Origin: Escherichia coli
Lineage (GTDB): Bacteria; Pseudomonadota; Gammaproteobacteria; Enterobacterales; Enterobacteriaceae
DNA: 64,000 bases
NCBI RefSeq assembly: GCF_046105845.1
Contig: NZ_CP151004.1
Reading direction: 5' to 3' (one strand)
Position 1 is the stretch's first letter. Each line of letters opens with the position of its first letter. The position numbers and the translations under genes are program-made. Under the pieces are notes generated by a model. That model ran no database searches and was not told the DNA's origin. It saw only the letters and a list, made by a program, of their open reading frames with translations. Shown in pieces: positions 3,869 through 31,781 of the stretch.

Positions 3869-4284
3869 CTGCTAATGCTGCACGCGCTGTTAAAGCAACA
3901 AGAGAACTGGTCAATGCAGTCCCCTTTCTGGGAGGTAGTGACTCAGAAGATGATTATCGTGAAGCACTGGAACTGGTCGAATATTTGATTGAAGAAGATG
4001 ACACCAATCCACTTATCGACTTTCTGGCGAGCCGCATTGCAGAATATGAAAACAACAACGAAAAGTTTGCCGAGTTCGACAAAGCCGTTGCAGCAATGCC
4101 GGTTGGCGTGGCGTTACTTCGTACGCTGATTGATCAACATAATCTGACCTATGCGGATTTGAAGAACGAAATCGGCTCTAAATCCCTGGTCAGTCAGATT
4201 TTGTCTGGACAACGATCCCTGACGATATCCCATATTAAGGCACTTTCAGCCCGATTTGGCGTTAAGCCGGAATGGTTTCTTTGA
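3865..4284 (+). CDS. HigA-family HTH (XRE-type) antitoxin
   Basis: 139 aa; start overlaps toxin stop (ATGA); C-terminal HTH-like segment (GSKSLVSQILSGQRSLTISHIKALSARFG) resembling HigA. Confidence 0.75.
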   Translation: MTANAARAVKATRELVNAVPFLGGSDSEDDYREALELVEYLIEEDDTNPLIDFLASRIAEYENNNEKFAEFDKAVAAMPVGVALLRTLIDQHNLTYADLKNEIGSKSLVSQILSGQRSLTISHIKALSARFGVKPEWFL

Positions 4285-4310
4285 TTTTGACTGATGCCAA
4301 ACGCCAGATT

Positions 4311-14303: not shown

Positions 14304-14357
14304 TTTTTTATCTAATTGTTTTTACTATATAAATAAAATTATGCTCATTAATGAGTA

Positions 14358-14413
14358 GTCAAAATGACTATCAATCAAATGGTCGATATGACAATATCTA
14401 TAGTCAAATTGAC
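14358..14413. promoter_or_regulatory. Three NorR enhancer sites (GT-N7-AC inverted repeats)
   Basis: gtcaaaatgac (14358..14368), gtcgatatgac (14382..14392), gtcaaattgac (14403..14413) upstream of the sigma-54 promoter. Confidence 0.7.
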
Positions 14414-14425
14414 AGTGAGGCAAAG

Positions 14426-15940
14426 ATGAGTTTTTCCGTTGATGTGCTGGCGAATATCGCCATCGAATTGCAGCGTGGGATTGGTCATCAGGATCGTTTT
14501 CAGCGCCTGATCACCACGCTGCGTCAGGTGCTGGAGTGCGATGCGTCTGCATTGCTACGTTACGACTCGCGGCAGTTTATTCCGCTTGCCATCGACGGGC
14601 TGGCAAAGGATGTACTTGGTAGACGCTTTGCGCTGGAAGGTCATCCACGGCTGGAAGCGATTGCCCGCGCCGGGGACGTGGTGCGCTTTCCCGCAGACAG
14701 CGAATTGCCCGATCCCTATGACGGTTTGATTCCCGGGCAGGAGAGTCTGAAGGTTCACGCCTGCGTTGGTCTGCCATTGTTTGCCGGGCAAAACCTGATC
14801 GGCGCATTGACGCTCGACGGGATGCAGCCCGATCAGTTCGATGTTTTCAGCGACGAAGAGTTACGCCTGATTGCCGCGCTGGCGGCGGGAGCGTTAAGCA
14901 ATGCGTTGCTGATTGAGCAACTGGAAAGCCAGAATATGCTGCCGGGCGATGCCGCGCCGTTTGAAGCGGTGAAACAGACGCAGATGATTGGCTTGTCGCC
15001 AGGCATGACGCAATTGAAAAAAGAGATTGAGATTGTGGCGGCGTCCGATCTCAACGTCCTGATCAGCGGTGAGACGGGAACCGGTAAGGAGCTGGTGGCG
15101 AAAGCGATTCATGAAGCCTCGCCACGGGCGGTGAATCCGCTGGTCTATCTCAACTGTGCCGCACTGCCGGAAAGTGTGGCGGAAAGTGAACTGTTCGGGC
15201 ATGTGAAAGGGGCGTTTACTGGCGCTATCAGTAACCGCAGCGGGAAGTTTGAAATGGCGGATAACGGCACACTGTTTCTCGATGAGATCGGCGAGTTGTC
15301 GTTGGCATTGCAGGCCAAGCTGCTGAGGGTGTTGCAGTATGGCGATATTCAGCGCGTTGGCGATGACCGCAGTTTGCGGGTCGATGTGCGCGTGCTGGCG
15401 GCGACTAACCGTGACTTACGGGAAGAGGTACTGGCAGGGCGATTTCGCGCCGATTTGTTTCATCGCCTGAGCGTGTTTCCACTTTCAGTGCCGCCGCTGC
15501 GTGAGCGGGGCGATGATGTCATTCTGCTGGCGGGGTATTTCTGCGAGCAGTGTCGTTTGCGGCTGGGGCTCTCCCGCGTGGTATTAAGCGCCGGAGCGCG
15601 AAATTTACTGCAACACTACAGTTTTCCGGGGAACGTGCGTGAACTGGAACATGCTATTTATCGGGCGGTAGTGCTGGCGAGAGCGACCCGCAGCGGCGAT
15701 GAAGTGATTCTTGAGGCGCAACATTTTGCTTTTCCTGAGGTGACGTTGCCGCCGCCAGAAGCGGCGGCGGTGCTCGTTGTTAAGCAAAATCTGCGTGAAG
15801 CGACAGAAGCGTTCCAGCGTGAAACCATTCGCCAGGCACTGGCACAAAATCATCACAACTGGGCTGCCTGCGCGCGAATGCTGGAAACTGACGTCGCCAA
15901 CCTGCATCGGCTGGCGAAACGTCTGGGATTGAAGGATTAA
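14426..15940 (+). CDS. norR: Sigma-54-dependent NO-responsive transcriptional activator
   Basis: GAF-AAA+ (GETGTGKE Walker A, GAFTGA)-HTH architecture; start at MSFSVDVL. Confidence 0.92.
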
Positions 15941-16902
15941 ATAATCCCGGCCTGATAGAAATCCTGCAGGTTAATTGCGCCGGTGAGTTTGCCGTTTTCA
16001 TCCACCACCGGTGCGGCAGTGATTTTGCGCTTCATCAGGATCTCTTTGGCGTCGATGGCGCGACTTTGTGCCTGTAATGTGGTGCCGCCTGTCGTCATCG
16101 CTTCATTAACTGGCGTGGTGAGTGCGCCGCCGCCAACCAGCCAGCGACGTAAATCGCCGTCGGTAAAGACGCCTTGTACCTGTTGTTGAGCGTCACATAC
16201 CGCCACCAGCCCCAGACCGGTGCGACTGAGCTCCAGCATCGCATCCATCACGCTGGCGGTTAACGCTACCTGCGGGATAGCGTCATCACGGCGCATCAGA
16301 TGATGCACTTTATTCAGCAAGCGAGCGCCCAGTGCCCCGGCTGGGTGGGAGCGGGCAAAATCTTCTTCATTAAATCCGCGCGCCTGCATGACCGCCATCG
16401 CCAGCGCGTCACCCATCATCAGGGTATTGACGGTGCTGGAGGTCGGCGCAAGGTGCATCGGGCAGGCTTCGCGTTCTACGGAGATATCCAGCACCGCTTT
16501 CGCCGCCAGGCCCAGCGGTGACGTCGGTTTGCCGGTCATCGCCAGCAGCGCGATAGATTTATCTTCCAGACGCGGAATAATCAGATCCAGTTCCTTCGCG
16601 CCACCGGAGTAAGAGATAAACAGCATCACATCGCGGCTTTCAATCATCCCCAGATCGCCGTGCAGTGCTTCTGCCGGATGGACAAAAAAAGCCGGTGTGC
16701 CAGTGCTGGCAAGCGTTGCGGCGATTTTCTTACCTATGTGGCCCGATTTGCCAATTCCCGAAACCACCACTTTGCCTTCGCAGTGCAGGATGATATTGGC
16801 GGCGCGAACAAAATCATCGCCCAGACGTTCCGGTAAACGGCTTGCTTCCTGCAACTCCAGCATTAACGTCTGACGTCCCGCGTTCAGTAGTGCTTCACTC
16901 AT
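15937..16902 (-). CDS. gutQ: Arabinose-5-phosphate isomerase (SIS + CBS domains)
   Basis: 321 aa; stop overlaps the norR stop on the opposite strand. Confidence 0.9.
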
Positions 16903-28071: not shown

Positions 28072-28164
28072 GGTGAGGTGGCCGAGAGGCTGAAGGCGCT
28101 CCCCTGCTAAGGGAGTATGCGGTCAAAAGCTGCATCCGGGGTTCGAATCCCCGCCTCACCGCCA
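28072..28164 (+). tRNA. serV: tRNA-Ser (anticodon GCU)
   Basis: 93-nt cloverleaf with long variable arm, anticodon loop cuGCUaa, encoded CCA. Confidence 0.9.
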
Positions 28165-28167
28165 TTT

Positions 28168-28244
28168 GCATCCGTAGCTCAGCTGGATAGAGTACTCGGC
28201 TACGAACCGAGCGGTCGGAGGTTCGAATCCTCCCGGATGCACCA
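28168..28244 (+). tRNA. argV: tRNA-Arg (anticodon ACG), copy 1
   Basis: 77 nt gcatccgtagctcag...gatgcacca; anticodon loop cuACGaa. Confidence 0.9.
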
Positions 28245-28378
28245 TATTCTACATATTTTCAGCGATGAAGGTATGGAAGAGGTGGCGGTAATAACCGCAG
28301 GCACTAGGGAGGATAACGTTGCTTTAGCAACGGCCCGAAGGGCGAGCCGCAAGGCGAGTAATCCTCCCGGATGCACCA
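28245..28378 (+). repeat. Inter-tRNA repeat unit ending in a 19-nt copy of the tRNA-Arg 3' end
   Basis: aatcctcccggatgcacca at 28360..28378 identical to the tRNA-Arg 3' end; the unit has a paralogue at 28800..28932. Confidence 0.6.
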
Positions 28379-28442
28379 TCTCTTACTTGATACGGCTTTA
28401 GTAGCGGTATCAAAAAATCTGCAGTAAAGTAAGTTTCCCGAT

Positions 28443-28519
28443 GCATCCGTAGCTCAGCTGGATAGAGTACTCGGCTACGAACCGAGCGGTCGGAGGTTCG
28501 AATCCTCCCGGATGCACCA
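28443..28519 (+). tRNA. argY: tRNA-Arg (ACG), copy 2
   Basis: Identical 77-nt tRNA-Arg sequence. Confidence 0.88.
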
Positions 28520-28582
28520 TCTCTTACTTGATATGGCTTTAGTAGCGATATCAATATCAGCAGTAAAATAAATTTTCCCGAT

Positions 28583-28659
28583 GCATCCGTAGCTCAGCTG
28601 GATAGAGTACTCGGCTACGAACCGAGCGGTCGGAGGTTCGAATCCTCCCGGATGCACCA
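28583..28659 (+). tRNA. argZ: tRNA-Arg (ACG), copy 3
   Basis: Identical 77-nt tRNA-Arg sequence. Confidence 0.88.
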
Positions 28660-28722
28660 TCTCTTACTTGATATGGCTTTAGTAGCGATATCAATATCAG
28701 CAGTAAAATAAGTTTTCCCGAT

Positions 28723-28799
28723 GCATCCGTAGCTCAGCTGGATAGAGTACTCGGCTACGAACCGAGCGGTCGGAGGTTCGAATCCTCCCGGATGCACCA
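28723..28799 (+). tRNA. argQ: tRNA-Arg (ACG), copy 4
   Basis: Identical 77-nt tRNA-Arg sequence. Confidence 0.88.
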
Positions 28800-31708: not shown

Positions 31709-31781
31709 AAAAAGGCCACTCGTGAGTGGCCAAAATTTCATCTCTGAATTCAGGGATGATGATAACAAATGCGCGTCTTTC
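31709..31781 (-). ncRNA. micA: MicA (SraD) small regulatory RNA
   Basis: Minus strand reads gaaagacgcgcatttgttatcatcatccctgaattcagagatgaaattttggccactcacgagtggccttttt, i.e. the MicA sequence with its terminator hairpin. Confidence 0.9.

Follow-up and report, generated by a model that had tools for sequence, protein, structure and literature searches.

Convergent genes that share bases between their stop codons are a described class in bacteria. Overlaps built on YTAR tetramers were named explicitly by Lillo & Krakauer (2007, PMC2174442), the convergent overlaps of E. coli have been counted as 58 and 75, and the distribution of overlap lengths jumps at 4 nt (PMC2174442; Huvet & Stumpf 2014, PMC4161906). 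Regarding RNA ends, transcripts that depend on Rho have their 3' ends directly behind stable stem-loops that lack a U tract, with rut sites located downstream (Dar & Sorek 2018, PMC6061677). Bidirectional intrinsic terminators, and programmed polymerase collisions, are described for convergent pairs with a stem-loop near the gene boundaries and overlapping transcript ends (Ju et al. 2019 as cited in Wang et al. 2022, bioRxiv 10.1101/2022.10.23.513370; Wang et al. 2022). Excludons, finally, are neighbouring opposite-strand genes with overlapping transcription, and their defining outcome is mutually exclusive expression (ExcludonFinder, PMC12288877).

The junction compared with these systems here lies between norR and gutQ in a 64,000-nt stretch of the E. 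coli contig NZ_CP151004.1, which was analysed as a whole and is referred to as the window (Table 1). norR encodes a 504-aa sigma-54 activator and stops with TAA at 15938-15940; its open frame can be followed upstream as far as an ATG at 14351. gutQ, the final gene of the srlAEBD-gutM-srlR-gutQ operon (sorbitol/gut operon), encodes a 321-aa arabinose-5-phosphate isomerase, and its TAA stop is read from 15939 to 15937. Both proteins are full length and 98.6-100% identical to the annotated K-12 and 118UI proteins. The norR frame ends in AAG GAT TAA on the + strand and the gutQ frame in GGG ATT ATT TAA on the - strand, such that 2 nt (15938-15939) are common to both stop codons and intergenic DNA is absent. 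The initial annotation had described this 2-nt overlap of stops on opposite strands, and the sequence, the ORFs and the RefSeq records all agree with it: the geometry is identical in K-12 MG1655 (gutQ 2829813..2830778 on the + strand, norR 2830775..2832289 on the - strand) and in strain 118UI, and the two genes are annotated under the match in 5,425 of 5,426 complete E. coli genomes.

Table 1. Features at and around the norR/gutQ junction (window coordinates).
Feature	Position	Strand	Basis or remark
norR CDS	14426..15940	+	ORF list; 98.6-99.2% protein identity to annotated NorR (K-12, strain 118UI)
Peak of bicyclomycin-sensitive Rho termination region, gutQ-sense	~15427	-	Transferred from K-12 2831288 (PMC7815308 supplementary file 2)
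12-bp G+C-rich inverted repeat in norR linker codons (PPPEAAA)	15744..15772	.	Terminator-like scan match; fold z -3.5 (- strand)
13-bp stem-loop GACGUUUCGCCAGCC-GAUGCA-GGUUGGCGACGUC in gutQ-sense RNA	15890..15923	-	MFE -20.6 kcal/mol; single-sequence fold
Imperfect inverted repeat GGATTA-aa-TAATCC	15934..15947	.	Judged incidental
TTAA, 4-nt overlap of the norR and gutQ CDSs	15937..15940	.	Central TA common to both stops
gutQ CDS	15937..16902	-	ORF list; annotation of matching E. coli records
Weak hairpin CGGTGAGTTTGCCG followed by TTTTCATCC	15981..16003	+	Scan match, 41 nt past norR stop, inside antisense gutQ

The overlap is an ordinary, already annotated member of the 4-nt convergent YTAR class. 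As in the published cases (PMC2174442, PMC4161906), two real coding genes lie on opposite strands and the central TA of [T/C]TA[A/G] belongs to both stops; there is no essential difference, and the detail added here is that the norR/gutQ overlap is held across Enterobacteriaceae genera. It is retained in 64 of 79 enterobacterial sources, and all four variants (TTAA, CTAA, TTAG and CTAG) are seen among these 64 related loci. The overlap stays stable because both stops need the central TA and because, in either frame, exchanging an outer base is synonymous or gives an equivalent stop: the outer T/C chooses between ATT and ATC (Ile) in gutQ and between TAA and TAG for norR, and the outer A/G between TAA and TAG for gutQ and between GAT and GAC in norR.

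With no space between the genes, any terminator must sit within the opposite gene. The initial annotation had gone further and concluded that no room is left for separate terminators; the missing space is real, but to call separate termination signals impossible was too strong, since a conserved gutQ-sense stem-loop lies within the norR CDS. As judged by sequence comparison, this stem-loop, and not the palindrome described at the junction, is the conserved feature near the two stops. Beginning 13 nt beyond the gutQ stop, it lies on the antisense strand of norR codons 489-499, which specify the NorR DNA-recognition helix within the most conserved segment of the protein. RNAalifold recovered it unprompted in 61 sequences, with 99.2% of cells paired. 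Two pairs show double changes from C-G to U-A, and a U-G intermediate is also seen; this covariation is thin (two pairs, few events) because most stem positions never vary. In the RNA of 61 species, the mean folding energy was -20.2 kcal/mol in the gutQ sense versus -15.3 kcal/mol in the norR sense, where the stem is weaker because a near-fixed G.U pair turns into a C.A mismatch. Disruptive and tolerated single-base transitions in the stem were about equally frequent on the two strands, and the case for a strand preference is therefore built on three things: the near-fixed G.U pair, the difference in folding energy and the non-coding remnants described below.

Synonymous variation in norR is suppressed over the same codons. 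Synonymous codon entropy was scanned over the 504 norR codons of 72 distinct sequences in 11-codon windows. The lowest window of the gene was 487-499 (mean H 0.41, compared with a gene mean of 1.05), and the dip over the stem-loop was significant in a permutation test (p=0.005). The stem codons had entropy z values of -1.3 to -2.35, whereas the loop codon His494 and the bulge codon Lys498 varied normally. A Mann-Whitney comparison of stem codons with the rest, performed after the structure had been seen, gave p=1.3e-6. The same scan of gutQ, as a search for a matching element serving norR transcripts, returned a lowest window that was not significant (p=0.15).

The reading we favour, at a probability of roughly 0.6, is that the gut operon mRNA is terminated by Rho inside norR and then trimmed back to a protective stem-loop. 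With no spacer between the genes, the gut operon has its 3' signals within norR. Ribosomes would depart from the mRNA at the gutQ stop, and Rho would load onto the untranslated, C-rich RNA antisense to norR, ending gutQ-sense transcription a few hundred nt beyond the stem-loop, still within antisense norR. Exonucleases acting 3'-to-5' would then trim the transcript back to the stem-loop, which would define and protect the mature 3' end. We infer that the stem-loop marks the steady-state 3' end and acts through exonuclease protection. The norR transcripts presumably end diffusely within antisense gutQ, by Rho or by collision.

Published read-through data from K-12 are consistent with this proposal. 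Adams et al. (2021, PMC7815308) recorded gutQ-sense transcription that continues through norR on its antisense strand and increases about five-fold upon Rho inhibition. At K-12 position 2831288 (+), upstream/downstream reads were 87/25 without bicyclomycin and 130/197 with it, giving a Rho score of 5.27 (p=2.2e-12); the region was mapped in one condition and at coarse resolution (800-nt windows, hundreds of nt). Transferred to the window, it lies ~510 nt into antisense norR, and downstream of the stem-loop, starting at about +130 nt, most stretches of the RNA have C/G above 1.3. Against the proposal, the curated Term-seq tables from LB and M63-glucose, media in which the gut operon is poorly expressed, contain no 3' end at K-12 2830600-2831199 (PMC7815308). 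The SMRT-Cappable-seq supplements list neither gutQ nor norR.

The model agrees with the general finding of Dar & Sorek (2018, PMC6061677). Like the protective stems in that study, the 13-bp gutQ-sense stem lies just past a stop codon, has no uridine-rich tract behind it, and is followed by C-rich RNA and a region of Rho-sensitive read-through, the last known from the single-condition, coarse-resolution data above. It differs from them in two respects: it stands antisense to the codons of a DNA-recognition helix instead of in an untranslated spacer, and it visibly limits the synonymous sites of norR; the 3' end ascribed to it is a proposed one.

We then consider readings in which the stem-loop acts during transcription, as an intrinsic terminator poor in uridines or as a pause site that possibly fixes the position of polymerase collisions, as has been proposed for bidirectional terminators of convergent genes. 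The strength of the stem and its place near the gutQ stop, with AGUUUCC behind it in E. coli, make this possible, and single-molecule work indicates that collisions between convergent genes take place at defined positions only if the nascent RNA forms a stem-loop (bioRxiv 10.1101/2022.10.23.513370). However, the tails that follow the stem (AGUUUCCA, CAUCUCCA and similar) hold only 2-4 U in their first 8 nt, with CAUCUCC in many genera; the consensus terminator scan made no call at the stem-loop; and read-through into norR is Rho-sensitive. There is also no A tract on the other side that would make the stem bidirectional. The locus shares a stem-loop near the gene boundaries and overlapping transcript ends with the bidirectional terminators of Wang et al. 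2022 (and of Ju et al. 2019 as cited there), but the gutQ-sense stem lies wholly within norR, has strand-asymmetric stability and lacks a U tract, and the junction itself offers no intergenic hairpin, no flanking A or U tracts and only a weak repeat. Overall we regard a co-transcriptional role as possible but unlikely.

Scanning ~2 kb on each side for canonical terminators gave 8 consensus matches versus 5.1 expected. The - strand downstream of gutQ has none of them, none of the 8 is conserved, and a conserved canonical terminator is absent on either side of the junction. The G+C-rich repeat in the norR linker codons, although strong in E. coli, was rejected as a conserved mechanism: it is specific to Escherichia, and outside this genus the linker is variable and cannot be aligned. 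Past the norR stop, RNAalifold on 43 sequences found no conserved local hairpin. The T tract behind the hairpin at 15981-16003 is complementary to the codons for E-N-G in gutQ; Enterobacter, Kosakonia and Klebsiella lack it, and to judge from these sequences the hairpin may at most be a weak, lineage-restricted norR terminator. Rfam searches of the whole window at gathering thresholds returned MicA and tRNAs only, with none at the junction. A sigma-54 promoter in the stem-loop region was also considered and set aside, as gSELEX gives no sites beyond those already known at norV and srlD (PMC8743547).

Another reading, in line with the interference suggested in the initial annotation, is that the pair behaves as an excludon: inducing the gut operon with sorbitol would reduce norR expression, or vice versa, because polymerases collide or because RNase III cuts the sense-antisense duplex. 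Transcripts of norR and gutQ must overlap because their CDSs overlap by 4 nt, and ExcludonFinder lists gutQ-norR among 165 convergent pairs overlapping in at least 50% of 58 MG1655 transcriptomes (PMC12288877, Table 1). The gutQ-sense reads antisense to norR, rising with bicyclomycin, point the same way. The listing, however, is based on coverage and reports no functional test of gutQ-norR; the pair shares transcript overlap with excludons, a class whose defining outcome is mutually exclusive expression. In untreated cells Rho limits the antisense read-through (25 reads downstream versus 87 upstream), norR is weakly expressed and autoregulated, and the sequence gives no sign of selected interference, for instance a long complementary untranslated stretch that is conserved; coding constraint alone can explain the arrangement. 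In the literature searched, we found no expression experiment on the norR/gutQ pair. Regulatory interference between the two genes seems rather improbable.

A further reading is that the stem-loop is conserved for reasons internal to norR and unrelated to gutQ, either the recognition-helix codons themselves or structure in the norR mRNA shortly before its stop. Its location over 11 residues of the most conserved NorR segment, the invariance of most stem positions and the ability of the norR-sense strand to form a hairpin all fit this explanation. Yet that hairpin is 5 kcal/mol weaker, and selection for optimal codons explains neither the retention of the rare Arg codon CGG and of GTC nor the confinement of variation to the loop and bulge codons.

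Genomes in which the stem no longer overlaps norR coding sequence also argue against it. In Enterobacter sichuanensis, norR has been lost and the next gene is co-directional with gutQ, so that no gene converges on gutQ any longer; the remnant beside gutQ nevertheless retains the stem, with 6 substitutions and a folding energy of -21.1 kcal/mol, a stability reached by only 0.42% of random 6-substitution variants. The gutQ-proximal copy in Kosakonia quasisacchari carries 4 substitutions and folds at -22.4 kcal/mol (0.28% of random variants), while two middle copies are degraded. In both species the remnants adjoining gutQ are non-coding, with norR lost or displaced, and the retention of the stem has p ~0.003-0.004 in each. 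A third remnant, in Escherichia sp. L007, has a weakened stem of -14.8 kcal/mol and is not significant (p=0.14). Conversely, a 63%-identical NorR-like gene that encodes the same 12-residue motif and is followed by a normal spacer has no stem-loop and has a canonical terminator in the spacer, although the comparison is confounded by differing base composition. This gene was reached by an exhaustive search of representatives; the word-indexed homologue search returned close NorR relatives only. Taken together with the codon evidence, we consider a purely norR-internal cause doubtful.

A more elaborate version of the collision proposal is that the stem-loop pauses polymerase 13-50 nt past the gutQ stop, over the last norR codons, and so fixes the site of head-on collisions. 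Induction of the gut operon by sorbitol would in that case cut norR transcripts short or silence them, and selection on both genes would maintain the element. We hold this to be very unlikely. If it were true, sugar-alcohol use in the gut would be coupled to nitric-oxide defence.

The junction repeat fares worst. The initial annotation had placed the stops inside a palindrome, but the 14-mer at 15934-15947, ggattaaataatcc, differs from its own reverse complement, GGATTATTTAATCC, and so is no true palindrome: its 6-bp arms flank a non-symmetric 'aa'. The repeat (12 of 14 positions matching) is centred at 15940.5 and is not concentric with the TTAA overlap, centred at 15938.5. The window contains 23 such 6+2+6 repeats, compared with 18.9 +/- 4.0 in Markov shuffles, and ~2% of its positions fall within some repeat with 6-bp arms and a spacer of 0-4 nt. 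Folding z values at the junction are -0.66 on the + strand and -0.29 on the - strand. Only 12 of 82 related sources keep all six arm pairs, and E. albertii keeps just three of them; in the alignment, 75% of cells are paired and 31 of 61 sequences are broken at two of five pairs. The GGATTA and TAATCC arms arise from codon choice in two frames (K-D-stop in norR, G-I-I-stop in gutQ), and from the sequences at hand we judge the repeat to be an incidental by-product of this choice, with no detectable role. That it terminates transcription in both directions, or binds a protein at the common stops, is extremely improbable despite its position exactly on the junction, given its chance-level frequency, its 5-bp A/U-rich stem with unremarkable folding and no flanking A or U tracts, its broken arms with no compensatory pattern, and the lack of an Rfam match at the site.

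The norR/gutQ overlap itself is of little weight, being annotated in every E. coli genome and belonging to a class first described almost 20 years ago. What the locus illustrates is that, when no spacer separates two genes, the RNA signals of one can sit in the coding sequence of the other and limit its synonymous sites. The stem-loop is a modest but clean example: throughout a bacterial family, it is the codons for the NorR DNA-recognition helix that are constrained. If Rho termination followed by trimming to the stem-loop is confirmed, the end of the sorbitol operon mRNA would be located, and 'silent' changes at the 3' end of norR could affect gutQ expression.

The stop codons of norR and gutQ overlap by 2 nt on opposite strands, as the initial annotation had stated. 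This is borne out by the reading frames and by the RefSeq annotations of K-12 MG1655 (gutQ 2829813..2830778, norR 2830775..2832289) and strain 118UI, which carry the same 4-nt gene overlap. The two stops have two bases in common and the coding sequences share TTAA, with no intergenic DNA. A 1.1-kb junction query matched 5,425 of 5,426 complete E. coli genomes, every one under norR and gutQ annotations, at a best identity of only 98.5%; the region is Escherichia chromosome. The overlap is genuine and ordinary, and was known beforehand from public annotation. Lillo and Krakauer (PMC2174442) named exactly the tetramers TTAA, CTAA, TTAG and CTAG, with a jump at length 4 among convergent overlaps, and counted 58 such overlaps in E. 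coli, against 75 in Huvet and Stumpf (PMC4161906).

Coordinates of features at and around the norR/gutQ junction and in related loci
Feature	Position	Strand	Detail
norR 3' end	stop 15938-15940	+	...CTG GGA TTG AAG GAT TAA; 504-codon frame
gutQ 3' end	stop 15937-15939	-	...GCC GGG ATT ATT TAA
Shared coding sequence	15937-15940		TTAA
Junction repeat	15934-15947		ggattaaataatcc; reverse complement GGATTATTTAATCC
Stem-loop	15890-15923	- (gutQ-sense)	GACGUUUCGCCAGCC-GAUGCA-GGUUGGCGACGUC; RNA folding, 13 bp, -20.6 kcal/mol
Small hairpin + TTTTC	15981-16003		from gutQ E-N-G codons
norR linker inverted repeat	15744-15772		CGTTGCCGCCGCC-AGAA-GCGGCGGCGGTG; 12 bp, G+C-rich
Upstream extension of norR frame	14351-14425		ATG at 14351
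srlR/gutQ overlap	16895-16902		8 nt, same direction; gutQ ATG at 16902
MicA (Rfam)	31710-31781		
Five tRNAs (Rfam)	28072-28796		
One tRNA (Rfam)	62778-62850		
38-nt overlap junction	~3929-3966 (locus)		in most of the 11 loci
L048 array	3976-4286 (locus)		three in-register copies 4038-4286; fourth stem-loop copy 3976-4012
L007 spacer	3964-4130 (locus)		165 nt
L043 remnant and hairpin	3964-4040 (locus)		

Three further observations concern the window. It is at most ~98.6% identical to the best-ranked of the 5,426 genomes (stretches 15400-16500 and 20000-44000), so its lineage has no strain-level representative among them. Rfam identified MicA and six tRNAs. At the other end of gutQ, the start codon lies within the end of srlR, a typical case of translational coupling inside an operon.

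A GutQ scan with one genome per species yielded 80 loci (Escherichia, Citrobacter, Salmonella, Enterobacter, Klebsiella, Raoultella, Kosakonia, Kluyvera and others); pooled with the window and two E. coli records, these gave 79 sources with both genes. The 4-nt overlap occurred in 64 of the 79, with all four tetramers represented. Judged from these sequences, this variation is the pattern predicted by coding constraint, since both stops depend on the central TA and changes at either outer base are silent in the frames of the two genes. Eleven sources (L051, L055, L057-L059, L061, L062, L064, L067, L068 and L070; Klebsiella, Raoultella and relatives) showed a 38-nt overlap: the shared stop is lost through a 7-nt deletion in the tail of norR, and the frame continues 38 nt into antisense gutQ, giving its product a different C-terminal extension. 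In two Enterobacter loci (L032, L039) the overlap was 8 nt, and two sources had DNA inserted between the genes (gaps of 243 and 972 nt). By this comparison, the norR/gutQ overlap is an old arrangement of a known class. At its 5' end, the open frame of norR reaches back 25 codons beyond the annotated start (529 aa in all), and a 529-aa NorR is annotated in one public record (P0001).

The "palindrome" described around the stops did not hold up. The 14-mer differs from its own reverse complement; 6-bp arms flank 'aa' in an inverted repeat whose centre is 2 nt off that of the TTAA overlap and whose arms lie in differing frames (norR K-D-stop, gutQ G-I-I-stop). Repeats of this form numbered 23 in the window versus 18.9 +/- 4.0 in shuffles, and ~2% of window positions lie within some 6-bp-arm repeat with a 0-4 nt spacer. 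Folding of the junction was no better than that of shuffled sequence (z -0.66 and -0.29). All six arm pairs were intact in only 12 of 82 related sources, E. albertii retained 3/6, and 31 of 61 aligned sequences had lost two of the five inner pairs without compensation. On frequency, folding and conservation we rejected the repeat as a functional element; it is incidental.

A different structure emerged when the gutQ-sense RNA was folded: a strong stem-loop beginning 13 nt past the gutQ stop, which RNAalifold also found, unprompted, in 61 aligned sequences. Its pair cells were 99.2% paired, and at two stem pairs C-G had become U-A through changes on both sides, one of them with a U-G intermediate. 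Much of this conservation could come from constraint on the protein, because the stem is antisense to norR codons 489-499, an 11-residue segment of NorR. Synonymous codon entropy was therefore measured along norR in 72 distinct sequences. Codons 487-499 formed the gene-wide minimum among 11-codon windows (mean 0.41 bits vs a gene mean of 1.05; permutation p=0.005). The nine stem codons had z values of -1.3 to -2.35, variation was normal at loop codon His494 and bulge codon Lys498, and the rare Arg codon CGG was kept in the stem. The mean stem energy was -20.2 kcal/mol in gutQ-sense and -15.3 in norR-sense RNA, ~5 kcal/mol weaker because a near-fixed G.U becomes C.A.

Genomes in which norR was lost or displaced retain a remnant of its 3' end beside gutQ. 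In Enterobacter sichuanensis (L038), which has lost norR, gutQ is followed by a co-directional gene, so that no gene converges on it; the remnant departs from the consensus stem at 6/34 positions but still folds at -21.1 kcal/mol, a stability matched by only 0.42% of random 6-substitution variants. Kosakonia quasisacchari (L048) has an 83-nt tandem array between gutQ and norR, each copy repeating the norR 3' end with its stem-loop and TTTAA junction. Of the four stem copies, the gutQ-proximal one, with 4 substitutions, has the best energy (-22.4 kcal/mol; equalled by 0.28% of randomly substituted variants), both middle ones are degraded (-14.0 and -10.5 kcal/mol) and the final one is the coding copy, so that a strong stem is kept only in the gutQ-proximal and coding copies. 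In Escherichia sp. MOD1-EC7003 (L007), norR-norVW is absent and gutQ converges on hypF across a spacer holding ~50 nt of norR 3' remnant followed by REP/BIME-like palindromes. In the remnants of L038, L048 and L007, the wobble partner that the Asn492 codon otherwise fixes has changed from T to C, making a G-C pair; this change apart, the L007 stem is weakened and not significant. In L043, where 972 nt separate gutQ from norR, a ~26-nt norR-like remnant is followed by a canonical hairpin and T tract on the gutQ-sense strand right behind gutQ (GGCGTTC-TACTGT-GAACGC, TTTTTCTT). In a distant NorR-like gene (63% identical, same 12-residue motif), the coding hairpin is absent and a canonical terminator is located in the 59-nt spacer. 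Together, these loci argue that the stem would serve the gutQ-sense RNA, not norR.

On the norR side, no conserved structure was found beyond the stop, synonymous constraint in gutQ was not significant (p=0.15), and many genera are without the small hairpin formed by the E-N-G codons. norR transcripts probably end diffusely within antisense gutQ. Within norR itself, the linker repeat, formed by Pro/Ala codons (PPPEAAA), is strong in E. coli, and its host region is not conserved outside Escherichia.

The initial annotation had also held that the overlap leaves no room for separate terminators. This is true of intergenic space, but the coding sequence of norR itself contains a conserved 3' stem-loop for the gut operon, and Rho terminates transcription deeper inside the gene; terminators of convergent overlapping genes necessarily lie inside coding sequence (PMC2174442). 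No U-rich tail follows the stem (E. coli has AGUUUCC, many genera CAUCUCC). A consensus terminator scan turned up none on the - strand downstream of gutQ, its candidates on the + strand were all weak and unconserved, and Rfam gave no match at the junction. Adams et al. 2021 (PMC7815308) reported a Rho termination region on the gutQ-sense strand at K-12 2831288, classed as antisense to norR, with upstream/downstream reads of 87/25 without and 130/197 with bicyclomycin (Rho score 5.27, p=2.2e-12). This lies 510 nt beyond the gutQ stop (~ window 15427), and the RNA 3' of the hairpin has more C than G from ~+130 nt on. Their Term-seq tables (LB, M63-glucose) give no 3' ends within K-12 2830600-2831199, unsurprisingly, as the gut operon is poorly expressed in these media. 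A second region in that data set, K-12 2829346 (+), lies inside srlR on the sense strand (~ window 17369, - strand; Rho score 3.7, p=1.7e-18) and suggests Rho-dependent polarity inside the gut operon, upstream of gutQ, in LB.

Rho-dependent transcripts have their 3' ends just past stable stem-loops lacking U tracts, which guard the RNA from PNPase and RNase II, with rut sites downstream (Dar and Sorek 2018, PMC6061677). The predicted gutQ stem and its downstream region fit this anatomy. gutQ-norR is among 165 convergent pairs whose transcripts overlapped in 50% or more of the 58 MG1655 transcriptomes surveyed (ExcludonFinder, PMC12288877); regulatory interference between sorbitol and nitric oxide responses is possible but unsupported. 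From the comparison of related genomes, together with a single published set of Rho data, we propose that the stem-loop is a 3' element of the gut operon.
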